Source: Candidatus Moranbacteria bacterium UBA2282 (lineage in GTDB: Bacteria; Patescibacteriota; Minisyncoccia; Moranbacterales; UBA2206). Taken from it: a DNA stretch of 64,000 nucleotides. The notes beneath the pieces are model-generated. The model was not told the DNA's origin. It did no database searches and saw nothing but the letters and a program-made list of their open reading frames with translations. The stretch is taken from NCBI GenBank assembly GCA_002345745.1, contig DDWQ01000011.1:21995-85994 (forward strand). Direction: 5' to 3'. Below, piece by piece: positions 2,184-39,243 of this stretch (positions within the stretch are counted from its first letter, which is position 1; the number at the start of each line of letters is the position of its first letter). Position numbers and translations under genes: made by a program.

Positions 2184-4838
2184 ATGGAACTTTTTAATAA
2201 ACTTTTTGGCTCAAACCAGCGTGAGATTGCAAAGTTGCAACCAATTGTCGAAAAAATAAATTCCTATGACGCGACAATGCGTCGTTTGTCTGACAGTGAA
2301 TTGCAAGCAAAAACACCAGAATTTCGGGAAAGAATTGCCAAAGGCGAAACTCTAGATGAGATTTTGCCAGAGGCATACGCGGTAGTGCGAGAGGCGGCTG
2401 ATCGAGTCAACGGGACTCGGCCTTTCGATGTGCAGTTGATTGGTGGCATTGTTTTGCATCAAGGTAAAATTGCGGAAATGAAAACAGGTGAAGGAAAAAC
2501 TTTGACTTCAACTTTGCCAATTTATTTGAATGCACTAACTGGCAAAGGTGTGCATGTTATTACAGTTAATGATTATTTGGCCAAACGTGATTGCAACTGG
2601 ATGGGATCAATTTTCTATTTTCTAGGAGTTTCAGCCGCTTGCATTATTCATGATGCGTCGTATATGTATAAAGCGAAAGTTGTTGATACTAATGAAGTGA
2701 ATGTTGGAAACCTGCCTGCTGGCAGGCAGGTGGAAAATTTGCAAGAAGTGATGCGTCGTGATGCCTACAATGCTGACATTGCTTATGGAACTAATAATGA
2801 ATTTGGTTTTGATTATCTGCGGGATAATATGGTGCAAGCAAGTTCTCAGATGGTGCAACGAAAACTCAATTTTGCCATTGTTGATGAAGTCGATTCAATT
2901 TTGATTGATGAGGCGCGAACTCCACTCATTATTTCGGCACCCGATACTGAATCAACTAAATTGTATCAGCAGTTTGCACAAATTGTGCCAAAACTAAAAA
3001 AAAAGGAGGATTATGAAGTCGATGAAAAAGCAAAGGCCGTGGTCATCACTGATTCTGGAATTTCTAAAGTGGAACAAATGTTGGGTGTTAGTAATCTATA
3101 TGAAACGGGCAAGATAAATTTTGTGCATCATCTAGAGCAAGCTTTGAAAGCACAGGTTATTTTTCAACGAGACAGCGATTATGTGGTAAAGGACGGTGAA
3201 GTTATTATCGTAGATGATTTTACTGGTCGTATGATGCAAGGTCGCAGATATAGTGACGGTTTGCATCAGGCTATTGAAGCCAAAGAAAATGTCAAAGTGC
3301 AAAAGGAATCACGCACATTAGCAACGATCACTTTTCAAAATTATTTTCGAGTTTATAAAAAACTAGCTGGGATGACTGGAACAGCTTTAACGAGTGCAGA
3401 GGAATTTTTTAAGGTGTATAATGTTGATGTTCTAGAAATTCCGACTAATCGCATTATGCAAAGAAAAGATTTGCCGGATGTAATTTATAAAACAGAAAAA
3501 GGCAAATTTAATGCTATCGCAGAAGAAATAAAAAGAGTTTATGAAATTGGACAACCAATTCTTGTGGGAACTATTGCAATTGAAAAATCAGAATATTTAA
3601 GCGCACTTTTGCAGAGGACTGGCGTGCCACACGCAGTTTTGAATGCTAAAAATCATGAAAGTGAAGCTTCTATCATTGCGGGGGCTGGGAAAAAAGGCGC
3701 CGTGACAATCGCAACTAATATGGCAGGTCGTGGAACGGATATAAAACTTGGAGAAGGTGTGAAAGAACTGGGCGGTCTTTTGATTATCGGAACGGAACGG
3801 CATGAAGCACGTCGCATTGATAATCAGTTGCGAGGGCGAGCCGGACGTCAGGGCGATCCTGGTGCTTCACAATTCTATGTCTCATTGGAAGATGAATTGA
3901 TGCGTCGCTTTGGTGGTGATAAATTGAAAGATATGATGGATCGTTTTGGCTTGCCAGAAGATCAGCCGATTCAAAATGGCATAATTTCCAAATCAATCGA
4001 AAGTGCACAATCAAAAATCGAAGGTTTCAACTTTGATATTCGAAAACACGTGCTGGATTATGATGATGTTATGAATAAGCAGCGTGAAGTTGTGTATAAA
4101 AAACGACGAGAAATTTTGGAGATGAAAGATGCCAAAAGTGAACTCTTGAATTATATTAACGAGGAAATTGAAAAAGTAGTTTCCTTCAATTGTGCTGGTG
4201 ATGAGTATGCTTGGGATATGAAAGAGTTGAACACTAATTTTAATGCAATTGTTTTTGCCCAAGGAGATTTGACTGGCAAATTGGAAGAAATTAAACAAGA
4301 TGGTCGTCATAGCGCGGCGGAAAAAATTAGCCAACTAGTGGAATTTTTGATGGGCATTGCCAAAGAAGTTTATAATAAAAAAGAGCAAAATGCAGGCACA
4401 GAGCAAATGAGATCCATAGAAAAAGCAGTTATTTTGCAAACGATGGATATGTCTTGGATGAATCATCTGGATGAAATTGATTATTTACGCGAGGGGATTG
4501 GTCTGCGTGGCTATGGTCAGCGTGATCCACTGATCGAATATAAGCGGGAAGCTTTTGGAATGTTTGCACAATTGATGGATAGTATTCGAGCTAATATTGT
4601 TAGTACAATTTTCAGAGTTAATGCAGTTTCGTCGCAGAAGGAAACTCCGCAAGAGAATTTGAATTTTAGCGGAGCGAATGATGAGGTGGAACAATTTGGA
4701 ACTACTAAAGCAGTTGAATCTGGCAACGATAAGGTGTCTGTTAAAAAATCACCAATTATCAATGAAGACAAGGTCGGTCGCAATGATCCTTGTCCGTGTG
4801 GATCAGGTAAAAAATATAAGAAGTGTTGTGGTAAATAA
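2184..4838 (+). CDS. secA: preprotein translocase ATPase SecA
   Basis: DEAD-like motor motifs ([26 protein letters not shown]), 884 aa, and a C-terminal zinc finger [14 protein letters not shown]. Confidence 0.97.
2711..2730. repeat. GC-rich palindromic mini-element (CCTGCCTGCTGGCAGGCAGG) in-frame inside secA
   Basis: Near-perfect 20-bp palindrome encoding LPAGRQ within the SecA nucleotide-binding region. The same element occurs at 9651-9670 and 13083-13104. Confidence 0.8.
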
Positions 4839-4861
4839 TGTAAGTTAGTGAGAAATTTAGA

Positions 4862-5341
4862 ATGAAAATATTTAATTTATCTTTTGAAAAATCAGTCGGT
4901 GCAGTTATCTTTCGTAGAAATGAAAGTGACGAAAAAGAATTCTTGCTTTTGCATTATCCTTCTGGTCACTGGGATTTTCCAAAAGGGCATATAGAAAAAG
5001 ATGAAACTGAGAAAGAAACTTTGCGACGGGAAATTATAGAGGAAACTGGAATAATTGAACTAAATATTATTGCTGGATTTAAAGATTACATCAGATATTT
5101 CTATCAAGCCAATGGTGATGAGCGAGAAGAAAGAATTAAAAATGGAAATGGCCTGAATGTTTTTAAAAAAGTTGTGTATTATATCGCTGAAACAAAGGAA
5201 ATATCTATCATAATTTCAGATGAACATATTAATTTTGAATGGTTAAATTATGAAAAGGCGGTTGCTAGAATAACTTTTGAAAATGGCAGAAATGTTCTTA
5301 GAAAAGCCGATGTCTTTTTAGAAAAGAATTTGCATAACTAG
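4862..5341 (+). CDS. NUDIX hydrolase
   Basis: Nudix box GHIEKDETEKETLRREIIEETGI (Gx5Ex7REUxEExGU). Confidence 0.8.
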   Translation: MKIFNLSFEKSVGAVIFRRNESDEKEFLLLHYPSGHWDFPKGHIEKDETEKETLRREIIEETGIIELNIIAGFKDYIRYFYQANGDEREERIKNGNGLNVFKKVVYYIAETKEISIIISDEHINFEWLNYEKAVARITFENGRNVLRKADVFLEKNLHN

Positions 5342-5396
5342 CCCTGAACATGTTTCATTTGCACAGTTTCTTAAGATATTGTAAAATAAATTTACT

Positions 5397-7139
5397 ATGA
5401 CATTAAAACGAAAACTCTCAATACAATTTATAGCAGTCATTATCTTGGCAATAATGGTTGGATTAATTTCCTATCCGAAAGTGGTTTCAAAAATACCGCC
5501 TGTTTATAATGCATTAAATAAACTGAAAATAAATCTTGGTCTTGATTTGCAAGGAGGAATTCATCTTGAATATGCGCCTGACTTGAGTAAAATCGAAGAT
5601 GCTAAAATTGATGAGTCAATGCAAGCCGTGCAAGATGTCATCGAGCGACGCGTGAATGCCTTTGGTGTAGCTGAACCGGTTATTTATACTACGAAATCAG
5701 GCACTGACCGTAGATTGATTGTTGAGCTGGCGGGCGTGAAAGATATTAATGAAGCTAAGAGTCTAATTAAAGAAACTCCATTTTTGGAATTTAAGGAAGA
5801 AGCCGAATCCGACACATCTAATGATATTCCACAGTCTGTGCTGGATGAATTAAATGTGCAGGTCAAACAAAAAGCTGAAGAAGTTCTAAAAAAAGCTCTA
5901 GCTGGCGAAGACTTTGCGCAACTAGCGAAAGATAATAGTGAGGATCCTGGTAGTAAAGAAAATGGCGGGGATTTGGATTTTGTTAAGAAAGGAACTTTTG
6001 TACCAGAATTTGATAAAATATTATTTGAAGGAAATTTAGCTGATGGCGAAATAAATAAAGAATTGGTTGAAACTCAATTCGGGTGGCACATTATTAAGAA
6101 AATTGAAAAACGACCTGCCTCGACTGGCGGAGAATTATTGTCGACGCAAGGCGGGGGCGAAGGCGATAGTTTAGAAATTCATAGTGCGCATATTCTGTTT
6201 GCTAAAAAAGTTAATCCAGCACCAGCACGAAACTTTGTCGAAACAGGACTAACGGGTAAAAATTTAAAGAATGCCTCAGTTGATTTTAGCAATCAAGGTA
6301 TGTCCGAGACGCAAGTCGCATTAAAGTTTGATGATGAGGGAACAAAATTATTTGCTGAATTGACTAAAAAAAATATTGGGAAAAGTTTAGCAATCTATCT
6401 TGACGGACAAATTATCAGTGCACCAACTGTGCAAGCTGAAATTACGAATGGCGAAGCTGTAATCACTGGAAATTTTTCAAATGATGAAGCTAGTAATTTA
6501 GTAAAGAAACTTAATGAAGGCGCACTACCGGTGCCAATTAATTTAGTTAGTCAAGATAGTGTTGATGCCTCACTTGGCACAGCTTCACTAACCACAAGTT
6601 TGAAAGCTGGCTATATCGGACTGGGTGTAGTGATGATTTTTATGTTATTCTATTATCGTTTTCTAGGACTGATTGCTTCGGTGGCTTTGTTTATTTATAC
6701 TGGCATGATGATCGCCCTATTTAAAATATCGGGTTTGACACCTTGGCAAATAACATTGACTCTACCGGGAATTGCTGGCTTTATTTTGTCGATTGGTATG
6801 GCGGTGGATGCGAATATTCTGATTTTTGAACGAACTAAAGAAGAAATTAAAAAAGGTCGCAATATTTTAGGGGCACTTGATGAAGGTTTCAAACGAGCTT
6901 GGACCTCTATCCGTGATGGAAATGTATCTTCAATTATAACCGCATTAATTTTAATTGAACTTGGTACCGGATTTGTAAAAGGTTTTGCCGTAACTTTGAT
7001 TATTGGAGTTTTACTTTCTATGTTTACAGCCGTTACAATTTCCAGAACGATGTTGCGATTTCTGCTAGGTGAATGGATTAACGACAAATTGTGGCTAGTA
7101 GGTGTGAAAAAGAAAGATATTGCCGAAATTAAAAAATAA
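5397..7139 (+). CDS. secD: protein translocase subunit SecD with parvulin-like insertion in the periplasmic head domain
   Basis: N-terminal TM, LDLQGGIHLEY SecD signature and a C-terminal 6-TM SecD/F core. Residues ~140-270 contain PpiC/parvulin-like motifs (GGDLDF...FGWHIIKK, HSAHILFAK). Confidence 0.9.
   Translation: MTLKRKLSIQFIAVIILAIMVGLISYPKVVSKIPPVYNALNKLKINLGLDLQGGIHLEYAPDLSKIEDAKIDESMQAVQDVIERRVNAFGVAEPVIYTTKSGTDRRLIVELAGVKDINEAKSLIKETPFLEFKEEAESDTSNDIPQSVLDELNVQVKQKAEEVLKKALAGEDFAQLAKDNSEDPGSKENGGDLDFVKKGTFVPEFDKILFEGNLADGEINKELVETQFGWHIIKKIEKRPASTGGELLSTQGGGEGDSLEIHSAHILFAKKVNPAPARNFVETGLTGKNLKNASVDFSNQGMSETQVALKFDDEGTKLFAELTKKNIGKSLAIYLDGQIISAPTVQAEITNGEAVITGNFSNDEASNLVKKLNEGALPVPINLVSQDSVDASLGTASLTTSLKAGYIGLGVVMIFMLFYYRFLGLIASVALFIYTGMMIALFKISGLTPWQITLTLPGIAGFILSIGMAVDANILIFERTKEEIKKGRNILGALDEGFKRAWTSIRDGNVSSIITALILIELGTGFVKGFAVTLIIGVLLSMFTAVTISRTMLRFLLGEWINDKLWLVGVKKKDIAEIKK
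6114..6163. repeat. longer palindromic element related to the CCTGCCT family, in-frame inside secD
   Basis: CCTGCCTCGACTGGCGGAGA...TTGTCGACGCAAGGCGGGGGCGAAGG, about 80% similar to the intergenic copy at 9782-9823. Termini CCTGCCTCG / CGAGGCAGG-like. Encodes RPASTGGELLSTQGGGEG. Confidence 0.6.
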
Positions 7140-7150
7140 AATGACAAAAA

Positions 7151-8050
7151 ATGTTTAATATTATTTCTAAAACTAAATATGCCTACATCTTTTCAATAAC
7201 TTTGACAGTTTTGAGTGTGATTAGTTTGTCTTTGTGGGGATTAAAAACCGGCATTGATTTTTCCGGTGGAACTGAAATGGAGATTGGATTTGTTGATAGT
7301 GTTCCAGCTAATCAAGAAATTGTTGCAGTACTTGAACCATTGAATTTAAGCAGTTTGACGGTGCAAAGAAAAGGAACAACTTCTTTATTGATGAGCTATG
7401 CTTCAGTAGAAGATAGCGTTAATCAAAATGTTTGGAAAAGTATTACGGAAAAATATCCCGAAGCAACACAACTTAAGGCTGATTATCGCGATTCATCCGT
7501 TTCTTCAGAGCTAAAAAATAAATCTTTGTGGGCACTTTTTTGGGCAGCAATTGGAATTATGTCCTTTATTGCTTGGGCTTTTCGTAAGGTTTCCCGACCG
7601 ATTGAATCTTGGAAATATGGAGTTGGAGCCGTTATAGCACTCATTCATGATGTGTTAGTCACTGTTGGTGTGTTTTCAATTCTAGGGCATTTTCAAGGAG
7701 TTGAAGTTGGTGTTCCATTTATCGCCGCGCTTCTGACAATTCTCGGATTTTCAGTGCATGATACAATTGTTGTTTATGACCGAACTCGTGAAAATCTTTT
7801 AAAAGGTTCGTCTAAAGAACCTTTTCCAGAGGTTGTTAATCGCAGTTTAAATGAAACTCTTGTGCGTTCAATCAACACATCCCTCACAGTTATTATAACC
7901 CTGTTATCATTGTATATTTTTGGAGGGGAATCAATTAAAAACTTTGCATTAGCACTTTTGATCGGTGTAGGTTTTGGGACATATTCTTCTATTTTCATTG
8001 CCTCAGCGCTGCTTGTGACGAGTTATGAAATGCAACTAAAAAAGAAATAA
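7151..8050 (+). CDS. secF: protein translocase subunit SecF
   Basis: 6-TM SecF topology and conserved DFxGG motif (GIDFSGGTEMEI). Adjacent to secD. Confidence 0.9.
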   Translation: MFNIISKTKYAYIFSITLTVLSVISLSLWGLKTGIDFSGGTEMEIGFVDSVPANQEIVAVLEPLNLSSLTVQRKGTTSLLMSYASVEDSVNQNVWKSITEKYPEATQLKADYRDSSVSSELKNKSLWALFWAAIGIMSFIAWAFRKVSRPIESWKYGVGAVIALIHDVLVTVGVFSILGHFQGVEVGVPFIAALLTILGFSVHDTIVVYDRTRENLLKGSSKEPFPEVVNRSLNETLVRSINTSLTVIITLLSLYIFGGESIKNFALALLIGVGFGTYSSIFIASALLVTSYEMQLKKK

Positions 8051-8085
8051 ATAATTCTACCAACTACTAACTATAAACTAAAATT

Positions 8086-8334
8086 ATGTGGAATCCATTT
8101 GCAAAAAATTCAACAACTAATGATGACGTAAAAGTTCCAAAGATGGGGATGATGCAAGCGATGGCAATGAAAAGAATTGCCAAAATGAGTCCTAAAGAAA
8201 GAAACAAAATTATGCAGGACGCAATGAAACCGGAAAATCGTAATAAAATTATAGGGGCTATGGATGCTATGAAAGCTTCTGGTCAAGTATCTGAAGAACA
8301 AATTGCTAAAGCGAAAAAAATGTTGGGGATGTAG
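8086..8334 (+). CDS. hypothetical Met/Lys-rich small protein
   Basis: Clean 82-aa ORF between secF and mscL. No recognisable domain. Confidence 0.4.
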
Positions 8335-8369
8335 CGCCTCAACTTTTTTATAAAACTAACAATAATCGT

Positions 8370-8768
8370 ATGTTTAAAGAATTTAAAAAATTTGCTGTCA
8401 AAGGAAATGCAGTTGATATGGCAGTTGGTATTATTATCGGTGCGGCTTTCGGTAAGATTGTAACGTCATTGGTAACTGACGTTATTATGCCACCAATCGG
8501 AGTTCTGCTAGGTGGGATTGATTTTTCTAACTTAGTTATAACATTGAAAAAAGCCACAGACACTACGGCGGCCGTAACACTAAATTATGGAATTTTCATA
8601 AATACAATTCTTGATTTTGTTTTAATCTCCTTCGCCATATTTATCATTATTAAACAAATCAATCGCTTGAAGAAAAAGGAAGAAAATAAGCCGGTAACTA
8701 AACCCACTGAAGATATTCTGCTACTGCGAGAAATCAGAGATGCACTCAAAAGTGGCACAAAAAAATAA
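8370..8768 (+). CDS. mscL: large-conductance mechanosensitive channel MscL
   Basis: [31 protein letters not shown] matches the canonical MscL N-terminus and TM1. Confidence 0.92.
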
Positions 8769-8859
8769 TTCATACTGTGAAAAAAGATATAAAACCCAAT
8801 CTTATTACAATTGGGTTTTGCTATTTAACGATATTTTTATTTTGTGGTATACTATAATT

Positions 8860-9441
8860 ATGAAATATCATAAAGACATATTTGAAATAATTTTCCATGC
8901 GCGGGGTGGACAGGGGGCTAAGACAGCCGCTGAAATCATTGCGCAGGCAGCGGTGAATGAGGGCAAATTTGTGCAGGCTTTTCCGCAATTCGGACCTGAA
9001 CGCAGTGGGGCGCCAACCAAGACGTTTGTGCGTATTTCTGATCATGAGATTAGAACTCATGAGCCGATTACTGACCCGGATGTCGTGGTTGTTTTGGACG
9101 AGACTATTCTTGATTCTGAGATTGTCACCACTAACCTCGACAAAAATGAAGCTTTGGTTGTGGCTACTAAAAAAACAGCATTGGAAATTAGTCAAAAGCT
9201 TTCTGTGCGTGCTAGATTTGAAGGCAAGATCTATCCGATTGATGCCAACGGAATCTCGATGGAAATCGTGGGACAGCCGAGACCAAACACGGTGATTCTG
9301 GGAAAATTTGTGCAAGTAACGGAAATTGTCAGTTTGGAAAGTGTAATTTCCGAATTTAAAAAAATATTTGGAACAAAAATTGGCAAAGAAGCCACAGATA
9401 AAAATATTTTAGCGATTGAAAAAGCATATGACACAATATAA
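8860..9441 (+). CDS. porC: pyruvate/2-oxoacid:ferredoxin oxidoreductase gamma subunit
   Basis: FHARGGQGAKTAAEIIAQAA...FPQFGPERSGAP. The start was moved to the internal Met at 8860. A TGgTATACTATAAT -10-like box lies just upstream. Confidence 0.85.
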   Translation: MKYHKDIFEIIFHARGGQGAKTAAEIIAQAAVNEGKFVQAFPQFGPERSGAPTKTFVRISDHEIRTHEPITDPDVVVVLDETILDSEIVTTNLDKNEALVVATKKTALEISQKLSVRARFEGKIYPIDANGISMEIVGQPRPNTVILGKFVQVTEIVSLESVISEFKKIFGTKIGKEATDKNILAIEKAYDTI

Positions 9442-9763
9442 TAAATCGGAAATTGAGAATAAAAAGTCTAAAATTGGCAGTGAAGAAGGTGCCGTTATTA
9501 AACACGATTTGAAAAATGCAGCTGCGACTGGTGATTGGCGATATATGACACCAATTGTAGATAAAGAAAAATGCACTGGTTGCACAACTTGCATGCCATT
9601 TTGCCCGGAAGCGTCAATCATAATGAAGGCATATAAAAGTGAGTCAACGGCCTGCCTGCCGGCAGGCAGGGACAAGTGTGATATTGACTATGATTTTTGC
9701 AAAGGTTGCGGAGTATGTGCAGCTGTTTGCCCAGCCAAAGCGATTACAATGAAGAAAAATTAA
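9416..9763 (+). CDS. porD: pyruvate:ferredoxin oxidoreductase delta subunit (2x[4Fe-4S] ferredoxin)
   Basis: Two CxxCxxCxxxCP motifs: CTGCTTCMPFCP and CKGCGVCAAVCP. Confidence 0.85.
   Translation: MKKHMTQYNKSEIENKKSKIGSEEGAVIKHDLKNAAATGDWRYMTPIVDKEKCTGCTTCMPFCPEASIIMKAYKSESTACLPAGRDKCDIDYDFCKGCGVCAAVCPAKAITMKKN
9651..9670. repeat. perfect 20-bp palindrome CCTGCCTGCCGGCAGGCAGG in-frame inside porD
   Basis: Encodes CLPAGRD between the two Fe-S motifs. Identical to the core of the element at 13083-13104. Confidence 0.85.
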
Positions 9764-9781
9764 TAATCCGATTCGAAACTA

Positions 9782-9823
9782 CCCGCCTCGACTCGCGGAG
9801 ACCTCTTGTCGAAGCGAGGCAGG
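9782..9823. repeat. palindromic element (CCCGCCTCGACTCGCGGAGA...GTCGAAGCGAGGCAGG) in the porD-porA spacer
   Basis: Terminal inverted repeat CCYGCCTCG / CGAGGCAGG. Related to the secD-internal copy at 6114-6163. Confidence 0.6.
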
Positions 9824-9852
9824 CGAATGTAATTCGAATCTACGAAAATATT

Positions 9853-11019
9853 TTGAATAATTCAAACAAAAAAAGAATAGCACTAAGTGGCGGCGCAGCG
9901 GCAGCGGAAGCTTTGAAACAGCTGGAACCGGATGTAATGGCGGTCTATCCGATTACCCCGCAAACCACGATTATCGAAACTTTTGCCAAATTCAAAGCAG
10001 ACGGCGAGGTTGCGACTGAGGTAATCGAGGTTGAGTCAGAACATTCAGCTATCTCAGCTTGCGTGGGGTCAAGTGCCGCTGGAGCACGCACAGTGACTGC
10101 TACGAGTTCACAAGGTTTGGCGTTGATGAATGAGATTTTATATATTGCTAGTGGAATGCGTCTGCCAATTTTGATGATTGTTTCTTCGCGTGCTTTGAGC
10201 GCACCACTGAACATTCACGGTGATCATTCTGATGTAATGGGCGCACGCGACACTGGTTGGATTCAAATTTTTTCTGAGAATGCGCAAGAGATTTATGATA
10301 ATACAATTATTGGTATGAAATTAGCGGAAAAAGTTAGATTTCCGGTGATGGCAATTATGGATGGTTTCAACACTTCGCATTGTGTTGAAAATCTGGAGAT
10401 TTTGCCGATTGAAAAAGTGCGAGAATTTGTCGGTGAATTTGTGCCAGAGCAATCATTATTGGATATTGAAAATCCTGTAACTTTTGGACCCGTAGCATTG
10501 CAAAATTCATATTTTGAATTTAAGGTCAATCAGGAAGAGGCGATGGATGATGTTGCGAATGAATATTTAAAAATCGCGAAAGAATTTGAGAAGTTGACTG
10601 GGCGAAAAAAGGATATTTTTGAAGCCTATCAAATTGAAGATGCCGAGCAAGTAATCATTTTGGCTGGTTCCACTGCGGGGACTGCTAAAGACGTAGTGGA
10701 TAATATGCGCGGTCAGGGCAAGAAGGTTGGACTGATTAAAATAAATCTATTCCGACCATTTCCGAGAAAAGAAATTATTGAAGCACTAAAAAATGTCCAA
10801 AGCATTGCAGTGATGGAGCGAGCAATTTCTTCAGGAACATATCCACCATTTTATCAAGATATTATGACAGGGTTGTTTCAATTTGGTGAGAAGAAAAATA
10901 TGCAATCAATCATATACAGTTTGGGTGGGTGCGATATTTTTGCGAAAGATATTGAACAAATTTTTAATGATTTGATTGCTAATAAAATTTCTAATGAAAT
11001 TAAATATATTGGAATATGA
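9853..11019 (+). CDS. porA: pyruvate:ferredoxin oxidoreductase alpha subunit
   Basis: IALSGGAAAAEAL...AVYPITPQT N-terminal consensus. The track ORF starts at 9697 and overlaps porD. TTG at 9853 (MNNSNKKRIALSGG...) gives a canonical PorA start. Confidence 0.8.
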   Translation: MNNSNKKRIALSGGAAAAEALKQLEPDVMAVYPITPQTTIIETFAKFKADGEVATEVIEVESEHSAISACVGSSAAGARTVTATSSQGLALMNEILYIASGMRLPILMIVSSRALSAPLNIHGDHSDVMGARDTGWIQIFSENAQEIYDNTIIGMKLAEKVRFPVMAIMDGFNTSHCVENLEILPIEKVREFVGEFVPEQSLLDIENPVTFGPVALQNSYFEFKVNQEEAMDDVANEYLKIAKEFEKLTGRKKDIFEAYQIEDAEQVIILAGSTAGTAKDVVDNMRGQGKKVGLIKINLFRPFPRKEIIEALKNVQSIAVMERAISSGTYPPFYQDIMTGLFQFGEKKNMQSIIYSLGGCDIFAKDIEQIFNDLIANKISNEIKYIGI

Positions 11020-11921
11020 ACAAAGAATTGACGAAAAATTTTGCATCTGGTCATAGTGCGTGTGCGGGCTGTGCTTTTCCGACAATTGTTCGGACGATTT
11101 TGGGTGAGTCGCCAGATCCAGTGGTCATTTCCAATGCCACAGGGTGCCTTGAAGTGACTTCGACGCTCTATCCATATTCGGCGTGGAAAACACCCTATAT
11201 TCACAGTGCCTTTGAAAATGCTTCCGCTACAATTTCGGGTGTGGAACGGGCGCATAAAATCTTGAGCAAAAAAGGCAAGGCGGCAAAGAAAATAAAATTT
11301 GTAGTCTTTGGTGGTGACGGCAGCACATACGACATCGGTCTGCAAAGCCTCTCGGGAGCATTGGAACGCGGACATGATTTTCTATATGTAGTCTATGATA
11401 ATGGCGGATATATGAACACTGGCAACCAGCGGTCCAGCGCGACGCCCTATGGTGCTGCCACAGAAACCACACCCACGGGCAAAGAATCTTTCGGCAAGGT
11501 GGAAATGCGAAAAAATATGATGGAGATTGTAAATGCGCATCACATCAAATATGCAGCGCAAGCTAATGTGGCATATTTGTCTGATTTGAAAAAGAAAGCT
11601 AAAAAAGCTTTTGAAACTGACGGACCAGTTTTTCTGAGTGTTTTTTCACCGTGCACGAACAATTGGAAGTTTCCAACATCGCAATATGTAAACATCGCTA
11701 AACTCGCCACTGAAACAAATTTTTGGCCACTCTATGAAATCGAGGATGGTAAATATAAAATTAATTGGGCGACAGAAAAACCGAAAGAATTGGAAGAATT
11801 TTTGAAAACTCAAGGGCGTTTCAAACATCTTTTTTCCGAGAAAAACGCGCCAGTTTTGGCAGAAATGAAAAAAATAGTCAAAGATGAATGGCAGTCATTG
11901 GTTAATAAAACGGAAGAATAG
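11016..11921 (+). CDS. porB: pyruvate:ferredoxin oxidoreductase beta subunit (TPP-binding)
   Basis: CAGCAFP Cys cluster and TPP motif GGDGSTYDIG...YDNGGYMNTGNQ. Overlaps the porA stop by 4 nt. Confidence 0.88.
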   Translation: MNKELTKNFASGHSACAGCAFPTIVRTILGESPDPVVISNATGCLEVTSTLYPYSAWKTPYIHSAFENASATISGVERAHKILSKKGKAAKKIKFVVFGGDGSTYDIGLQSLSGALERGHDFLYVVYDNGGYMNTGNQRSSATPYGAATETTPTGKESFGKVEMRKNMMEIVNAHHIKYAAQANVAYLSDLKKKAKKAFETDGPVFLSVFSPCTNNWKFPTSQYVNIAKLATETNFWPLYEIEDGKYKINWATEKPKELEEFLKTQGRFKHLFSEKNAPVLAEMKKIVKDEWQSLVNKTEE

Positions 11922-11947
11922 AATTTGGGGAAGTGATATATATGGGC

Positions 11948-12020
11948 GCCGATGTGGCTCAGTTGGTAGAGCAGCGCACTCGTAACGCGCAGGTCGTCGG
12001 TTCGATTCCGACCATCGGCT
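11948..12020 (+). tRNA. tRNA-Thr (anticodon CGT)
   Basis: Cloverleaf: acceptor GCCGATG/CATCGGC, D-arm GCTCAGTTGGTAGAGC, anticodon loop CTCGTAA, T-arm GTCGGTTCGATTCCGAC. Close to the E. coli thrW pattern. Confidence 0.85.
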
Positions 12021-12037
12021 CATAATTTTTTTAAGAA

Positions 12038-12784
12038 ATGGTAATTATGTTGGGTTTATTTCAAGATTTATTTTTCAATACGGAAACTCTGATTGCCACG
12101 CTAATCGGCTTTGTTGGAATTGCTGGAATGATATTATTTGTATCGTTGTATAAAATAAAAAATCCAATAACAAATCCTGTTGAGCTAAGTCAAAAAGATG
12201 CAACTGAATTGGAATGGAATTTGAATGCTGGTGAAAGGAAGATTATTAATAAAAAGATTATAATAAAATTATTTATTATAATAGTTCCAATTTTGTTTTT
12301 GTATCTTTTTTCTAAACGTTTAGAATTAGGAATTGACTCTAACAATCTTGCCATAGGATATCTGTTGTTTATTGCTGTGGTATTTGGACTAAGTTATTTA
12401 TTTATGGTTATCATTGCACCCAAAAATTTGCATTATAAATTGACAAATCAAGGGATAGTAGTGAATAGGGGCAATTCCGAAGGTTTTTTTACTTGGGATA
12501 ATTTTATTTATTTTTCTGGTAAATTTCAGGGCATATCACTGGATAATATAGATAGCGAGATACAAGATAGAAGCGTCATGAAACAGTTGAGGGATATTCG
12601 CGGGGAAATTTTTTATTTAAAATTTAACTCAAGAGGATTTTTTTCTAAGATAAATTTTATAGAGCGTATTTTAGTTATTTATACAAGGCCGGATAATTAT
12701 CAGAAGGTACATGCATTTTTAACGGATAAATTACCTCAAGAGCCAATTAAAAATTTAGGTTTTCAGAGTTATTATTTTAAATAA
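12038..12784 (+). CDS. hypothetical membrane protein
   Basis: Several predicted TM helices. No recognisable motif. tRNA-adjacent. Confidence 0.45.
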   Translation: MVIMLGLFQDLFFNTETLIATLIGFVGIAGMILFVSLYKIKNPITNPVELSQKDATELEWNLNAGERKIINKKIIIKLFIIIVPILFLYLFSKRLELGIDSNNLAIGYLLFIAVVFGLSYLFMVIIAPKNLHYKLTNQGIVVNRGNSEGFFTWDNFIYFSGKFQGISLDNIDSEIQDRSVMKQLRDIRGEIFYLKFNSRGFFSKINFIERILVIYTRPDNYQKVHAFLTDKLPQEPIKNLGFQSYYFK

Positions 12785-12960
12785 AAAAACATGAAAACGC
12801 GCATATGTATTTAATTTACATAATTTTTATAAAAAATAATATTTTTTATATCTAAAAAAAGAGTGCAGAGGAGAAGAAAAAAGATCTGGAGCATCTAAAA
12901 ATGGACGATTTGTTCTAATTTTTGGGAATAAGAATTTATTTTTAATGATTACAAAAGTAA

Positions 12961-13033
12961 GGTATAATAAAAAATAACATAACAAAACTATGAAAACATA
13001 CATTTGTGAAATCTGCGGGGATGCTTACATTGG
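12961..13033 (+). repeat. 73-bp perfect direct repeat, copy 1 (rubrerythrin promoter plus first 14 codons)
   Basis: Identical to 15136-15208. Contains a TATAAT -10 box and ATG-MKTYICEICGDAYIG. Confidence 0.9.
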
Positions 13034-13064
13034 AGATGGCACACTTCCGCCAGTGGGCGGATAA
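12990..13064 (+). pseudogene. truncated duplicate of the rubrerythrin 5' end (24 codons then stop)
   Basis: Translates MKTYICEICGDAYIGDGTLPPVGG*. The first 14 codons are identical to the intact gene at 15165. Confidence 0.7.
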
Positions 13065-13082
13065 ACTCCATGCGTAGGTCGT

Positions 13083-13104
13083 CCCTGCCTGCCGGCAGGC
13101 AGGG
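13083..13104. repeat. perfect 22-bp palindrome CCCTGCCTGCCGGCAGGCAGGG (intergenic copy)
   Basis: Direct reading. Lies 50 bp right of the 73-bp repeat copy 1. Confidence 0.85.
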
Positions 13105-13164
13105 GTTCGTTTCCGACAGGTGGCTCAGCATAAATCATAAAATAAGCAAGATTAAATTAAAAAA

Positions 13165-13506
13165 ATGAAAATTATTAAAGATGAAATTTCAATTGATGAG
13201 TTGCGAGAAATGTCAGGCAAGATGTTTGGTAATTTAGTCAAGGCAGTTGTTGATGTTGAGAAAAAGATTATGGCAGTAGATGCCGATTTGCATGCTGATG
13301 AAGAAGCTTTGCTTTTGGAAAATGGATCAGTACAAAAAAATTTGTGGGGTATTAATATGTACCCAGAACTAACAGGTGAGGATTTCGTAGAATTTGATTC
13401 TATGATAAACTTGCGTCCATCACAGGGCAATCGCAGTCGAGGAGTGGAGGATATTGAAATTCAAAAAGAAATTATAGTCATAGTTAACAAATTAGTGAAA
13501 AAATAG
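13165..13506 (+). CDS. conserved hypothetical protein (DUF-type, 113 aa)
   Basis: Clean ORF. The motif pattern WGINMYPEL...NLRPSQGNRSRGVED recalls an uncharacterised conserved family. Confidence 0.55.
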   Translation: MKIIKDEISIDELREMSGKMFGNLVKAVVDVEKKIMAVDADLHADEEALLLENGSVQKNLWGINMYPELTGEDFVEFDSMINLRPSQGNRSRGVEDIEIQKEIIVIVNKLVKK

Positions 13507-13839
13507 ATGGAAATACAACATAAAAATCTAGCCTCTGGTGGATGGCAAAAACTTTCTTTCTTTGAGCAAATGGCTAATATTGGGAGTGAGGTTGAGCGCA
13601 CAATTAAGTGGAAAAATAAAGGTAATGCTGAATATAGTCAAATGGCCTTTGATCGTGCATTAGAACTTTTGGATTTGACTGTCAGTATGGAAAAAAATAA
13701 AAGCCATCTCAAAGAATTGTTGCGCGCAAGAGAAGCACTGGCTGATTATTTTGTATTTGATAATGATTATCAATCAACGGATAAAAGCTGGCAAAATTAT
13801 TTTTATGCCTTTAACTTCGCGGCGAGAATAAATTTATAA
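13507..13839 (+). CDS. hypothetical protein (110 aa), translationally coupled to upstream ORF
   Basis: The ATG abuts the TAG of the previous ORF (TAGATG). No recognisable domain. Confidence 0.5.
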   Translation: MEIQHKNLASGGWQKLSFFEQMANIGSEVERTIKWKNKGNAEYSQMAFDRALELLDLTVSMEKNKSHLKELLRAREALADYFVFDNDYQSTDKSWQNYFYAFNFAARINL

Positions 13840-13856
13840 AAAATAATTTTTACAAA

Positions 13857-14018
13857 ATGAATGATGATAAAAAAATAATCGCTGAAATAGAAAAAATCTC
13901 CAAAGAATATTGGGAAAAGCTTGGTGAATTGAAAATGGAGCAAAATGAGGTAGTTCGTGAATATATTCTGAAATTGGAGGAAAAAAAGAAAGAGGAGTTA
14001 ATGAAAAAATTTGTTTAA
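13857..14018 (+). CDS. small charged/coiled hypothetical ORF (53 aa)
   Basis: ATG 13857 to TAA 14016-18. Not in the track. K/E-rich. Confidence 0.25.
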   Translation: MNDDKKIIAEIEKISKEYWEKLGELKMEQNEVVREYILKLEEKKKEELMKKFV

Positions 14019-14032
14019 TTATAGGAAATATT

Positions 14033-15142
14033 ATGTTTGAAGCAAAATCTGAAAATTCAAAAACAGAATCAGAAAAACCAAGGATTGAAAATGCAACTAA
14101 GGAAATTATCAGTCCAGAGTCTTTGGTAAAGCAAAAAATTTCTGAGATGCAGAATGGCACATTTGAACTGGAAAGAAATGGGCCGGAACGCATAGAAGGA
14201 GCTAAAAAATCGATTGGATTAAATGCTGAGGATGTAAAAAAGATACAGGATGAATTGCAAATAAATGAAAGGGTGTCTGGAATATCGGATAGAGCAAAAA
14301 AACTTTTTGAATTAGCACAATCGGCCATAAAAAAAGTTGTAGTGATTGGAATGGCGACGATGGCTTTTTCAGGCACAGCAGGAGGACATAATGAATTTAA
14401 TGATGAATTTACTATCAACTCTAATGCACTGGAAAGCATAAAAAATGATGCAGATAGAATAAAAAATGAAATTAAATCACATATAGGTAGCCAGGAATAC
14501 TTAGAGAAGTTGACAAAGGAAATGAATGGAGACAGGCAGGGGGCGGAAAATATACAAAAAGATCGCTTGAGCTATTTAGATAGTGTTGCGTCTTTTTTTG
14601 TAAATGATGTTAATCGTAGCTATGCGGCTGAAGTCTTAAGAATATCAGATAATCTTAATCCATCTATTCCTCAATGGCTGATTAAAATGATTGGCAATGA
14701 AGGTATGAAAGGTTTCTATAACTCCCTAGACCACAAAATTTTTTTAACTGATGGGAGTAATAATGAAACGGCTAGACATGAGTTTTTGCATGCTAGCACT
14801 AAAAGTAATTTTAGTATAACAAAAGAAGCAGGGAAAATTTTATCTGACTCATATAAGCCTCTTAAAAATGAAAATGATGAGTATTTTAGTAAATCTACAG
14901 AAAGATTAGTGCGCAAACAACAATTGGACCATGAAATGGAAGTGTTAGGAATTAAAAAATATGGTGAAAAATTTACACCAGAACATTATAGTAAGCTGAT
15001 GAAATTTTATAATGAGAAAAAGTTATCATCTGGTTCAAAGCAATTTATAAAGACTACAAAACCAGAATATTTTGAGAAGATTTTTAATGAAATAGCTGAT
15101 AATGAAGATAAAAGAGATGCAAGTAGCCACAATGTGGTATAA
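14033..15142 (+). CDS. hypothetical single-TM protein with HExxH motif (putative zinc-metallopeptidase-like)
   Basis: Central hydrophobic helix VVVIGMATMAFSGTAGG. ARHEFLHAS contains an HEFLH (HExxH) motif. No further family assignment is possible by eye. Confidence 0.5.
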   Translation: MFEAKSENSKTESEKPRIENATKEIISPESLVKQKISEMQNGTFELERNGPERIEGAKKSIGLNAEDVKKIQDELQINERVSGISDRAKKLFELAQSAIKKVVVIGMATMAFSGTAGGHNEFNDEFTINSNALESIKNDADRIKNEIKSHIGSQEYLEKLTKEMNGDRQGAENIQKDRLSYLDSVASFFVNDVNRSYAAEVLRISDNLNPSIPQWLIKMIGNEGMKGFYNSLDHKIFLTDGSNNETARHEFLHASTKSNFSITKEAGKILSDSYKPLKNENDEYFSKSTERLVRKQQLDHEMEVLGIKKYGEKFTPEHYSKLMKFYNEKKLSSGSKQFIKTTKPEYFEKIFNEIADNEDKRDASSHNVV

Positions 15143-15208
15143 TAAAAAATAACATAACAAAACTATGAAAACATACATTTGTGAAATCTGCGGGGATGCT
15201 TACATTGG
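15136..15208 (+). repeat. 73-bp perfect direct repeat, copy 2
   Basis: Identical to 12961-13033. Confidence 0.9.
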
Positions 15209-15683
15209 CGAAGAACGGCCAAGTGACTGTCCGTTTTGCGGGGCGGCGAAAAATTTTATTAAAGATGGTGTGGAAGCGCGACCATTTGTAAATCAGGTAA
15301 TTGAACTGTCAGAACTTTCCAGAAAAAATCTAGAAGAAACAGTGCAATTAGAATTGCACGCCAATGCCGTTTATCTGTGTATGGCGGGCAAAGCCAAGAC
15401 CTATGAAATCAAGGCAATGTATAAACGCATTGCTAAAGTTGAATTGGAGCACGCTAACATTGCTTGCAAGCTAATGAAGATTGCACTGCCGGCAGTTAAC
15501 CCAGAATTGTGTAGTGATGAGGACGCGGAAAATTTTGCAGAAACTATTAAGTTGGAAGAAAATGCCACAGCATTATATGCGAAATTTGCCAAAGAGGCGA
15601 CTGAGCAGGAAATTAAAATTATCTTCACCGCCCTGATGCAAATTGAAGCCAGTCACATAACGCTTATAAAAAATTATCTTTAA
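15165..15683 (+). CDS. reverse rubrerythrin (N-terminal rubredoxin-like CxxC...CxxC plus ferritin-like diiron domain)
   Basis: CEICGDAY...CPFCGA rubredoxin-type centre, followed by E...EHANIA / E..H helices typical of rubrerythrin. Confidence 0.8.
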   Translation: MKTYICEICGDAYIGEERPSDCPFCGAAKNFIKDGVEARPFVNQVIELSELSRKNLEETVQLELHANAVYLCMAGKAKTYEIKAMYKRIAKVELEHANIACKLMKIALPAVNPELCSDEDAENFAETIKLEENATALYAKFAKEATEQEIKIIFTALMQIEASHITLIKNYL

Positions 15684-27809: not shown

Positions 27810-27889
27810 AAAGCAAAAATTCGGCAATGTTCGAAAAATCGTCAAAAAAGGGGCGGAAAAATTCCAATCCTTTTTTATTTTACCAAATA

Positions 27890-27923
27890 TTAACATAATC
27901 TTACGGTCGTAAGTTAATGTTGG
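27890..27923. repeat. palindrome-containing element copy A (core CTTACGGTCGTAAG)
   Basis: TTAACATAATCTTACGGTCGTAAGTTAATGTTGG. The first 16 nt are identical to copy C. Confidence 0.75.
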
Positions 27924-28015
27924 GAATGTGCAGGTAGATAAAAAATTAAATAGATAGATGTATTTGTGATTTGAGATAAATTAATTGTTATTTTAAATGT
28001 CAACGTTATTTAAAA

Positions 28016-28050
28016 TTAACATCTTCTCACGGTCGTAAGATTATGTTATG
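28016..28050. repeat. palindrome-containing element copy B (core CTCACGGTCGTAAG), inverted relative to copy C
   Basis: 30 nt identical to the reverse complement of 28621-28654. Ends 8 bp before the ATG of the 28059 ORF. Confidence 0.8.
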
Positions 28051-28058
28051 ATTGGGAT

Positions 28059-28619
28059 ATGTATAAATTCGGACCGGTGCAAAAGAAAATAATGATCACA
28101 CTTTTGGGTGGGGTTGCTTTGGGGATGTCCTCAAATCCGCGACAATATTTCAAGACTTTGCGGAAAGTGCGTAAAGATTGGAATAATGTCGATCAATATA
28201 GCTTCAAGCGTTCCGTTTTACGACTTTCAAAAGAAAAACTGATTGAGGAGAAAATTCTTCCGGACGGATCATTTAAATTGGTACTTACGAAAAAAGGCGG
28301 TGAGCAGGCAAAGAAATTAAACTTGCTAGGTAATTCCATTAAATTTAAATTTCCGAAAAAGTGGGACGGAAAATGGCGAATAGTTATTTTTGATATTCCG
28401 GAAAAAGATCGGGTGTTTCGAGATATTTTGCGTGGACATCTTCATAAGCTCAAATTTATTAAATTGCAAAACAGTGTCTTTGTTTCACCGCATCCTTTTG
28501 AAAGTCTTATTTTAGAATTAGTTGGATTGTATTCAGCTGAAAAATATGTACGGGTAATTACGGCATTAAAAATTGATAACGAAGATGACCTTAAAAAGAA
28601 ATTTTTTGATAAAATTTAA
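28059..28619 (+). CDS. putative transcriptional regulator: wHTH-like N-terminus plus Cas2-like / PaaX C-terminal-like domain
   Basis: C-terminal WRIVIFDIPEKDRVFRDILRGHLHKLKFIKLQNSVFVS matches the Cas2/PaaX_C beta-alpha-beta pattern (hhhhYDI...R..h...L...G.RhQ.SVF). The N-terminal ~90 aa is basic and helix-rich. Confidence 0.5.
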   Translation: MYKFGPVQKKIMITLLGGVALGMSSNPRQYFKTLRKVRKDWNNVDQYSFKRSVLRLSKEKLIEEKILPDGSFKLVLTKKGGEQAKKLNLLGNSIKFKFPKKWDGKWRIVIFDIPEKDRVFRDILRGHLHKLKFIKLQNSVFVSPHPFESLILELVGLYSAEKYVRVITALKIDNEDDLKKKFFDKI

Positions 28620-28620
28620 A

Positions 28621-28654
28621 TTAACATAATCTTACGACCGTGAGAAGATGTGGG
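28621..28654. repeat. palindrome-containing element copy C (core CTTACGACCGTGAG)
   Basis: Begins 2 bp after the stop of the 28059-28619 ORF. Confidence 0.8.
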
Positions 28655-28712
28655 TTTTGCATCACAAATCCCGTCACAAATCCTTGCTTCTAAGAGCCAA
28701 ATAGGCTAGAAT

Positions 28713-33577: not shown

Positions 33578-33645
33578 TGAATTAATCATCGTATTATGAA
33601 ATCAGATACTTATAAAATATTATAAACTTTTGTTTTAATAAAAAT

Positions 33646-34254
33646 ATGAAATATTTAGATTTTGCAGAGATATTTAAGGATTTTAACTCTTTTTCATTTC
33701 AGGATATTAAAAATGCCTTTGGTGATGTCAACCACTCACAATTGAGTGACTGGAAAAGGAAAGACCTTCTGCAATATGCAAAAAGAGGAGTTTTTGTTTT
33801 GCCAAATGCTAAAATTGACTTACATATTTTAGCTAACGAACTAAATTATTCGTATATATCCCTTGAATATGCATTGTCATATTATCAGATGATTCCAGAT
33901 GTAGCGCAAACCATTACTTCAATTTCAAAGGATAGAAATGAGAAGATTCACAATGAATTTGGCAGTTTCGTGTATCAAAAAATAGCTAAAGATCTTTTTT
34001 TGGACTACATTTTAGTTAAAAGTGAAAATGAGAAGAGATATTTTAGAATCGCGACTCCGGAAAAAGCCCTATTTGATTTGGTTTATTTACGGCAGGATTT
34101 GCAAACCAAAAACGACTTTGAATCTTTGCGTTTAACATTACCAAAGGATTTTAAAATATCTAAAATTAAAAAACTTTCCAGCTTAGTTAAGGCGAATAGA
34201 ATGAAAAGCAGGCTAAATAATTTAATTGATTATTTGTATGATTGCGTTAAATGA
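33646..34254 (+). CDS. AbiEi-like antitoxin (type IV TA, wHTH)
   Basis: Size, N-terminal wHTH-like segment and the position directly upstream of, and overlapping, the AbiEii-like gene. Confidence 0.55.
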   Translation: MKYLDFAEIFKDFNSFSFQDIKNAFGDVNHSQLSDWKRKDLLQYAKRGVFVLPNAKIDLHILANELNYSYISLEYALSYYQMIPDVAQTITSISKDRNEKIHNEFGSFVYQKIAKDLFLDYILVKSENEKRYFRIATPEKALFDLVYLRQDLQTKNDFESLRLTLPKDFKISKIKKLSSLVKANRMKSRLNNLIDYLYDCVK

Positions 34255-35011: not shown

Positions 35012-35127
35012 CTTAAAGCAAATATAAAACGATGCATCTATGACTACCAAAACCGTCATAAGTGTAATATAGGCAAAAAATACCTTATTTTAGTCGAAAT
35101 TTATCGACAGCATAAGTCCTTCAAATA

Positions 35128-35207
35128 AAATCGCCACCCAAGTTTTGCATGACGGGGATTTGGTGGAGGTGGATGCGGATAATGGGATTGTGAAAATTAT
35201 TAAATAA
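35128..35207 (+). pseudogene. 3' remnant of a PEP-utilising swivel-domain gene (last 26 codons only)
   Basis: Translates KIATQVLHDGDLVEVDADNGIVKIIK*. It is ~90% nt identical to the 3' ends of the neighbouring paralogs. No upstream ORF is connected. Confidence 0.7.
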
Positions 35208-35213
35208 ATTATT

Positions 35214-36689: not shown

Positions 36690-36693
36690 TCAT

Positions 36694-37719: not shown

Positions 37720-37724
37720 TTTGT

Positions 37725-39224: not shown

Positions 39225-39243
39225 AAAATACATTTTTACAAAT

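Follow-up and report, generated by a model that had tools for sequence, protein, structure and literature searches.

Five short GC-rich palindromes in a 64,000-nt stretch of the Candidatus Moranbacteria bacterium UBA2282 genome (contig DDWQ01000011.1, positions 21,995–85,994; the whole stretch is referred to as the window) probably belong to two families of selfish mini-insertions, which are GC-rich, palindromic and non-autonomous. Three of them are copies of a 20-nt palindrome, which we refer to as PAL20, and two are longer hairpins of 42 nt. The insertions are precise, carry no gene, form hairpins, are polymorphic among close relatives, occur nested and are present in phages. Copies in open reading frames (ORFs) are retained only at sites in loops and with the reading frame intact.

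Elements in the window and their absence from orthologs

All five elements proposed in an initial annotation of the window could be confirmed. PAL20, CCTGCCTGC(C/T)GGCAGGCAGG, is located at 2711–2730, 9651–9670 and 13084–13103 (palindromes are given without strand). The first copy (CCTGCCTGCTGGCAGGCAGG, with a single mismatch at the centre) lies inside secA (ORF 2184–4838), where it encodes LPAGRQ and reads N-LPAGRQ-V. It is preceded on the plus strand by the eight bases GTTGGAAA (2703–2710), one nucleotide more than in the empty GTGGAGA. The second copy, a perfect palindrome, is inside porD (about 9428–9763), in the linker between the two 4Fe–4S motifs, and reads A-CLPAGR-D. Both reading frames are as originally proposed. 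The third copy, also perfect, interrupts an orphan tRNA-Thr-like 3' fragment in its T-stem. The two longer hairpins are on the plus strand. One of them, a degenerate copy, is inserted in frame in secD (ORF 5397–7139) directly after the IIKKIE motif of the parvulin/rotamase domain and encodes PASTGGELLSTQGG; it occupies 6114–6155 and not, as first drawn, 6114–6163, the orthologs limiting it to 42 nt. The other (9782–9823, boundary uncertain by 1 nt) is in the porD–porA spacer and is flanked on both sides by the short direct repeat ATTCGAA(A/T)CTAC.

The GC content is 36% for the window and 80% for PAL20 by direct count, and the 42-mers are plainly GC-rich. No match to PAL20 was obtained in 100 dinucleotide-preserving shuffles of the window. 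Upon folding as single-stranded DNA, the three PAL20 copies reach −10 to −10.6 kcal/mol (z = −3.8, −2.1 and −4.2); z is −2.1 for the spacer 42-mer and −0.85 for the degenerate one in secD. A scan for compact GC-rich hairpins returned the five elements and one further hairpin at 13046–13061 (TCCGCCAGTGGGCGGA, no strand), located between a rubrerythrin duplicate and the orphan tRNA fragment, which may be another mini-element with CCGCC...GGCGG ends. All six are within the first 13.1 kb of the 64 kb. At gathering thresholds, Rfam detected only two tRNAs in the whole window and had no match at the elements.

Alignment with orthologs supports the proposal that the inserts in SecA, PorD and SecD are lineage-specific, as close orthologs are empty (in the following, L numbers denote sampled loci and P numbers ortholog proteins). 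For SecA, 115 of 120 orthologs are empty and read EV(S/T/N)-V-EM-ENL, the window protein being seven residues longer; the closest orthologs among the matches listed (91% and 86% identity) are both empty. The insertion site is a loop of about 25 residues in nucleotide-binding domain 1 (NBD1) without counterpart in Bacillus subtilis SecA, and query residues 155–179 stay unaligned in a HMMER comparison with the Bacillus protein. In PorD, the closest orthologs have KEGQRDK between the Fe–S motifs where the window protein has KSESTACLPAGRDK, which is seven residues more, and orthologs at 83% and 73% identity among those listed are empty. A PAL20 insert is also present in P0126 and P0127, in a decayed form in P0125 and as a variant in P0164. 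The exact 42-nt block of secD, between CGA|GGC, is missing from three relatives (L121, L122 and L123), and that of the porD–porA spacer from two (L122 and L159). All four sites are empty in the nearest sampled relative (ENA sample ERZ2855122; L121 and L159), whose SecA is 91% identical by BLASTP and 93% in the trimmed alignment. To judge by the organisms named for the SecA orthologs, the host belongs to Candidatus Moranbacteria (Parcubacteria, candidate phyla radiation). In the SecA and PorD comparisons, the inserts occupy loops or linkers. A search with the concatenated insert peptides against a protein database was uninformative, with 1831 word-sharing candidates and none at E ≤ 10.

The Fe–S linker of PorD, the site of PAL20 itself, is also a hot spot for other odd low-complexity inserts. 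These are derived from CGCAAAT- or ACGATAC-like short repeats, for example RESQNANRNANETRSTIRNKRYA, and were found in L122:12080–12180 and in the orthologs P0141–P0144, P0162 and P0183.

A single family, as first assumed, is not consistent with the distribution of the elements. PAL20 and the 42-mers share just the style of their termini, CCYGCC...GGCRGG. The 42-mer core has zero matches in 1.29 Mb of PAL20-bearing loci, and PAL20 occurs once in 394 kb of long-element loci. A common superfamily with shared machinery is conceivable, but the two do not co-occur. The long-element core is also without a match (0) in phage contigs.

The long family was found by a metagenome scan for a 16-nt core, which yielded at least 120 stretches. 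About half of these are chance matches, in GC-rich contigs or in one human-gut gene, as expected when a 16-mer is searched in a very large collection. The full hairpin is present in 53 distinct copies including the two of the window, all on contigs or loci of 34–49% GC. The consensus is CCCGCCTCGACTCGCGGAGAC-(0, 3 or 6 nt)-(C/G)(G/C)(C/T)T(C/T)GTCGACGCGAGGCGGG, abbreviated as CCCGCCTCGACTCGCGGAGAC..GCTCGTCGACGCGAGGCGGG. The hairpin is kept, and a few compensatory pairs preserve the outer stem. Six copies are 39 nt long, 23 are 42 nt, 22 are 45 nt and two are 41 nt, so that the length is divisible by three in 51 of 53. Stop-free frames of at least 200 codons contain 32 of the 53 copies (~60%), mostly read as PASTRGD..SSTRGG. 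This count is a rough proxy for coding and includes the spacer copy of the window, by way of a TTG-start ORF (9697–11019) that runs upstream of the likely porA start.

The third PAL20 copy of the window had been taken as plainly intergenic. However, with PAL20 removed its flanks GCGTAGGTCGTC|GGTTCGTTTCCGAC agree with the real tRNA-Thr over the T-arm (11987–12012) in 24 of 26 positions, and therefore the element splits the T-stem of an orphan tRNA. The fragment (13062–13130, plus strand) extends from the anticodon loop to the 3' end, is called as a tRNA by neither ARAGORN nor Rfam, and starts 26 nt to the right of 76 nt that duplicate the promoter and 5' end of the rubrerythrin gene (12961–13036). 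The surroundings form an island of about 3.2 kb (11922–15211) that separates porB from the rubrerythrin gene; in L160 the two genes are neighbours. The island contains the tRNA-Thr gene (11948–12021), an ORF for a membrane protein of 248 residues, the PAL20-bearing tRNA fragment, a DUF5674 gene (13165–13506) and three more ORFs. The 76-nt duplicate, 99% identical, comprises the rubrerythrin promoter and the first 16 codons (12961–13036 = 15136–15211). This layout matches a Campbell-type integration of a small circle bearing the 5' end of the gene.

PAL20 as an insertion unit and its state in secA and porD

Twelve other loci contain a filled site together with an empty paralog that differs by the exact 20-mer (for example L038, L107, L084, L110, L094, L079 and L119). 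No target-site duplication was found in the empty/filled pairs, the differences being a clean +20 for PAL20 and +42 for the secD and spacer elements. PAL20 is nested inside PAL20 in L019 and L043; its host is another palindrome or hairpin loop in L080, L146, L020, L085 and L026. In L094, PAL20 interrupts a partial duplicate of the 5S rRNA gene (927 against 1023).

The flanks of PAL20 are different at every locus. Position −1 is an A in 41% of cases, and A|T pairs enclose 26% of the copies versus about 8% expected; no conserved flanking word was found beyond these preferences. Flanking inverted repeats of at least 8 nt are present at 6.5% of PAL20 copies versus 1.5% in controls, and direct repeats of at least 8 nt at 8.9% versus 2.0%. 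The target in secA is a tandem repeat junction (TGGAGA|TGGAAA), and many long-element copies sit between TTCGAA- or TACGAA-like repeats. Microhomology-guided template switching was ruled out, as flanks matching the PAL20 ends occur at background level. A replacement of two bases by a 22-mer A-PAL-T fits L031 but fails in L038 and L107.

As the length of PAL20 is not divisible by three, a second change is required in ORFs. Empty secA alleles read GTGGA(G/A)A|TGGAAAA, while the five filled lineages (the window, P0006, P0019, P0038 and P0047) read G[A/T]TGGA(G/A)A|PAL|TGGAAAA. The net insertion is thus PAL20 plus one base 7 nt upstream, altogether 21 nt and in frame. Filled porD alleles, with PAL20 removed, are likewise one base longer than empty ones over the preceding 8–13 nt. 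In-frame insertion, as initially described, is therefore correct for the coding copies, except that PAL20 with its 20 nt needs an extra base upstream.

Each filled SecA lineage has empty nearest neighbours, at up to 93% identity, and parsimony on a neighbour-joining tree of SecA requires five changes between the filled and empty states. The secA DNA directly flanking the insert follows the relatives of each lineage. Spread of filled alleles by ordinary recombination with long tracts was ruled out, since the flanks are each lineage's own. The LPAGRQ codons are identical at six of six positions in four filled lineages and at five of six in the window, whereas same-residue codons in the secA flanks match in just 47–65%. 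PAL20 is thus kept constant at the DNA level in secA. PorD follows the same pattern, with its filled, decayed and variant alleles. For PAL20 copies in ORFs, the data fit either repeated arrival at the same sites or the movement of ~30-nt patches between lineages. An extra base at one common position speaks for a single origin and short-patch transfer; the clean de novo insertions elsewhere demonstrate that true insertion takes place too.

The constancy of PAL20 in SecA, across lineages whose synonymous sites have diverged, could also mean that the elements are functional cis-elements under selection, involved in RNA stability or in pausing or termination or serving as the site of a conserved dimeric protein, their spread then being recruitment. 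The stable folds and the intergenic location of PAL20 between gene ends in Bacteroidota (see below) agree with such a role, and the comparable repetitive extragenic palindromic (REP) sequences are thought to be RNA elements (PMC3733652). We nevertheless regard it as unlikely. Copies are found in essential ORFs, in orphan tRNA and 5S rRNA fragments and nested in one another. Their position relative to genes is inconsistent, a U-tract is lacking, most orthologs are without the element, no two loci share their flanks, and Rfam has no match at the elements.

The common architecture of the five filled SecA alleles, including the position of the extra base, and the scattering of filled lineages among empty ones would be expected if the filled secA and porD alleles had each originated once and had later reached other Moranbacteria through homologous exchange of very short patches, following uptake of DNA and perhaps helped by a transmission bias towards the looped strand. 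No current transposition would then take place in these genes. A parallel is the optional GC cluster in var1 of yeast mitochondria, which spreads via gene conversion. However, the DNA adjacent to the insert is each lineage's own, so that tracts of ~30 nt would be needed, and the clean de novo +20 insertions at many unrelated non-coding sites and in several phyla would be left unexplained. As an account of the elements such exchange is quite improbable; it complements the model of selfish mini-insertions rather than replacing it.

Distribution of PAL20 and association with GIY-YIG genes

The same 20 letters are present without any change in at least 120 stretches from species-representative genomes (copy numbers from the collection scans are lower bounds). 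According to the record titles of the 80 stretches listed, many of whose labels are approximate, 24 are from the candidate phyla radiation (CPR, Patescibacteria), 22 from Bacteroidota, eight from metagenome-assembled genomes (MAGs) labelled Gammaproteobacteria or Pseudomonadota, seven from Planctomycetota or the Planctomycetes–Verrucomicrobia–Chlamydiae (PVC) group, six from Omnitrophota, six from Deltaproteobacteria, Bdellovibrionales and Thermodesulfobacteriota, two of Thermodesulfovibrio type and one from Chloroflexi, with four unclassified. The cultured Bacteroidota Winogradskyella echinorum KCTC 22026, Flagellimonas yonaguniensis, Longitalea luteola and Flavivirga sp. are among the carriers. 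PAL20 is thus not confined to CPR-like genomes: cultured Bacteroidota have an identical 20-mer, and so do Omnitrophota, Planctomycetota, MAGs labelled Proteobacteria and contigs of phages.

At loci with one PAL20, a second copy or a near-variant, for example CCTGCCTACCGGCAGGCAGG, is frequent. In CPR genomes, PAL20 is read as LPAGRQ also in FtsK-like, GatB-like, bS6-like and glycosyltransferase-like ORFs, which were identified by eye through their conserved motifs. The Bacteroidota copies are intergenic, between gene ends, typically among short heptamer-like repeats.

In viral contigs, PAL20 is present in 35 stretches, and both composition-matched controls, the arm-swapped palindrome GGCAGGCAGGCCTGCCTGCC and a permuted palindrome, gave 0. 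Together with the shuffled windows, this bears out the assumption that the motifs occur far above chance. It also bears on the possibility that replication errors at the site itself, either snap-back synthesis or slippage on CCTG/CAGG repeats, create each palindrome anew, without any transfer. PAL20 is indeed composed of CCTG units and their complement and often adjoins short tandem repeats. Such an origin is nevertheless very improbable: the arm-swapped palindrome of the same 10-mers was not found, the arms have a sharply defined length of 10 nt, the flanking letters that a longer CCTG pattern would require (G...C) occur in 7 of 123 cases, which is the chance level, and the empty sites have no CCTG repeat.

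A perfect palindrome common to unrelated assemblies also resembles an adaptor dimer. That the elements are sequencing, assembly or adaptor artefacts is, however, extremely improbable, as the elements are embedded in continuous genomic sequence, for which exact empty paralogs and orthologs exist, the coding copies hold a compensating base by which essential genes stay open, decayed variants occur, and PAL20 is carried by isolate genomes and by assemblies from different pipelines and read types.

The phage contig IMGVR_UViG_3300037242_000417 (L144, L151 and L152; 29.5 kb, 60–66% GC) has at least six PAL20 copies, some of them embedded in larger repeats present in both orientations. The large terminase subunit is its sole recognisable gene. 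This phage is a possible vehicle for PAL20.

Genes for small GIY-YIG proteins were found in the vicinity of some copies. For 11 of 16 GIY-YIG ORFs, an index hairpin is no more than 400 nt away, against 3.1 expected (p about 5e-6). Pfam domain PF01541 was confirmed for the ORFs of L107 and L119; the others were identified via hidden Markov model (HMM) searches built from those. A recurrent cassette consists, in this order, of an orphan 5' part of a tRNA whose D-loop contains or adjoins a hairpin, a small GIY-YIG ORF and the intact tRNA. The hairpin is PAL20 in L038 (2090–2480), L107 (3680–4061), L119 (5790–6200) and L155 (490–900), the long element in L221 (960–1380) and L195 (10220–10700), and another or variant GC hairpin in L040 (860–1100), L272 (1380–1860) and L078 (2690–3060). 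In the L107 cassette, the hairpin is at the anticodon stem-loop junction. The presence of three hairpin families at one spot of the tRNA suggests that this spot is breakage-prone or that its disruption is selected. The arrangement occurs in CPR-like genomes and one phage contig and has the appearance of a mobile cassette, tRNA-linked and with a GIY-YIG gene, that has not been described so far.

Related arrangements were seen at other loci. L016:4010–4225 and L208 (minus strand, about 12916–13581) have the 5' half of a tRNA, a complete second tRNA and then the 3' half of the first, and the D-arm of the split tRNA holds PAL20 or the long element. In L208, a 17-nt inverted repeat brackets the middle part. 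In L094:4498–5302, a GIY-YIG ORF is located within an insertion in the 23S rRNA gene, bracketed by the inverted repeat GAGCCCTACTT...AAGTAGGGCTTC. A second GIY-YIG subtype with a C-terminal NP.W.DLY motif (L177:1094–1393 and L261:11220–11546) is bracketed by GTCATTCC..GGAATC-type hairpins. At other loci (L020, L092, L032 and L068) the loops of such hairpins hold an inserted PAL20.

The following mechanism would account for these observations. PAL20 would enter as an exact 20-bp unit without target-site duplication, with a preference for hairpin loops or centres, including the arms of tRNA genes, for junctions of tandem direct repeats and for A|T steps. It would persist as a clean +20 where the DNA is non-coding or a gene fragment is redundant, while in essential ORFs only PAL20 together with an extra nearby base would survive (+21 nt, seven codons), tolerated because the site is a variable surface loop. 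As PAL20 carries no gene, it would have to be moved in trans, and it may travel between lineages with the phage genomes that carry it. The long family, detected here only in low-GC, CPR-like metagenome contigs, could colonise ORFs directly because its lengths of 39, 42 and 45 nt keep the frame; these multiples of three may be the outcome of evolution or of filtering and would suit a mostly coding genome. We infer that a trans-acting activity pastes the elements at DNA breaks or single-stranded hairpin tips. GIY-YIG nucleases may be one source of breaks or of selection. A hairpin at a nuclease target would destroy the target and hence protect the site, which could explain the recurrent acquisition at the secA and porD sites and the copies in orphan tRNAs.

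Several points weigh against this model and against the interpretation as selfish mini-insertions in general. Among ORF families next to 120 PAL20 loci, none recurs except GIY-YIG, and no mobilising enzyme was found. GIY-YIG genes adjoin only a small minority of copies (11 of ~230); the 64-kb window has no such gene, so that none of its five elements adjoins one. The extra base is at an identical position in all five filled SecA lineages. Independent insertion and compensation do not explain this well; a single origin with very short-patch transfer, or a coupled mechanism, fits better. The perfect conservation inside SecA could reflect a function of the hairpin. The sample of the long family was chosen by a fixed 16-nt core, by which the conservation of the 5' half is partly built in. 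The phylum-level spread of PAL20 is affected by the approximate taxon labels of many MAGs, and its letter-perfect identity across phyla is left unaccounted for by selfish insertion as such.

An extended reading would address this last point. PAL20 might be the smallest mobile DNA yet seen, a 20-nt hairpin that is pasted at DNA breaks or hairpin tips without duplication, mobilised in trans (with small GIY-YIG nucleases as candidate), carried between phyla by phages and acting as a patch that destroys nuclease targets. If in CPR bacteria it patched such targets in essential genes and duplicated tRNA copies, both the repeated acquisition in secA and porD and the letter-perfect sequence would be explained. 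We consider this reading doubtful.

Relation to known elements

Palindromic insertions in ORFs are known from Rickettsia. The Rickettsia palindromic elements (RPEs) are selfish in-frame palindromic repeats of ~100–150 bp, confined to this genus, which are absent from orthologs, tolerated in surface loops and found also in non-coding DNA and RNA genes. The behaviour of the elements described here resembles that of RPEs, as had been proposed: they are hairpin repeats inserted in frame in ORFs, including essential ones, are absent from orthologs and are sited in loops. They differ in size (20 nt and 39–45 nt, outside the RPE range) and host (Moranbacteria), the likeness being one of description. 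In addition, PAL20 is identical across phyla and phages and its length is not a multiple of three.

The GC clusters of yeast mitochondria are likewise short GC-rich palindromes in an AT-rich genome, which are optional, nest in their own kind and enter an ORF. In the var1 cluster, extra duplicated bases keep the frame, which parallels the additional base at PAL20 in secA and porD, and gene conversion with associated breaks spreads the cluster. Yeast GC clusters, however, are organellar and belong to other sequence families, and many have a short target duplication, which PAL20 lacks. The resemblance to RPEs and yeast GC clusters is functional; the elements are not members of either family.

REP sequences and REPINs are GC-rich hairpins of 20–40 bp repeated in a genome. 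By definition, one end of a REP palindrome has an unpaired tag, GTAG or CGTC (PMC3733652). At PAL20, GTAG and CGTC were found 5 times each in 356 flank sides with ~2.8 expected, so that PAL20 does not have the tag. REPs are mobilised by RAYT (IS200/IS605-like Y1) transposases encoded in the genome; within the sampled stretches around 120 PAL20 loci, no transposase-like ORF recurs. REP families are specific for a species or clade, while PAL20 is identical across phyla. Some tagged REPs lie inside genes, notably those for replication and repair (PMC3733652). Palindromic repeats in genes are thus not new as a general phenomenon. This qualifies the initial impression that equivalent elements are undescribed for AT-rich, CPR-like genomes, although the elements here lack the REP tag and for these particular sequences we found no paper. 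The open-access literature contained none with the 20-mer, its 12-mer CCTGCCTGCCGG, the core or 3' arm of the long element, PASTRGD or LPAGRQ, a description elsewhere being possible, and nothing relevant on palindromic insertions in CPR or Patescibacteria.

With miniature inverted-repeat transposable elements (MITEs) the elements share the non-autonomous character, inverted termini, presence/absence polymorphism and nesting, but they have no target-site duplication and PAL20 has no internal sequence. A longer element with CCTGCCTGCC...GGCAGGCAGG ends, as expected for a parent insertion sequence (IS), was not seen in the sampled loci; no search of an IS database was made. The lack of a duplication is shared with IS200/IS605-type elements, but the conserved target tetra- or pentanucleotide of these is absent at PAL20. 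GIY-YIG homing cassettes such as phage T4 SegB (PMC2330249) are similar in that small GIY-YIG ORFs lie next to tRNA genes, with hairpins in the duplicated tRNA. They differ in that the hairpins have no gene of their own and that for most copies, the window's five among them, there is no adjacent GIY-YIG gene; the nucleases themselves are putative.

CPR proteins and RNAs carry unexplained extra segments. The elements provide a concrete source of some of these, namely loops of 7–15 residues (LPAGRQ, PASTRGD..SSTRGG) in SecA, SecD, PorD and FtsK-like, GatB-like and S6-like proteins. Two features are puzzling, a letter-perfect 20-mer across phyla without a linked gene and the repeated +21 at identical sites. 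An identical, gene-unlinked 20-mer in several phyla and in phages calls for a trans-acting machinery of broad range or an unusually efficient horizontal route; to our knowledge, neither is known. The cultured carriers Winogradskyella, Flagellimonas, Longitalea and Flavivirga may open the movement of a gene-less palindromic element to experiments. For annotation, the elements create spurious small ORFs and disrupt tRNA calls, and could be masked.

Two other repeat structures were observed in the window. Four to five diverged tandem paralogs (33383–39227) share a conserved C-terminal block of 84–180 nt and are unrelated to the elements. A 43-nt AT-rich imperfect palindrome (AATATTAACATAATCTTACGGTCGTAAG...) is present in three copies, direct and inverted, within 800 nt (27872–28665).

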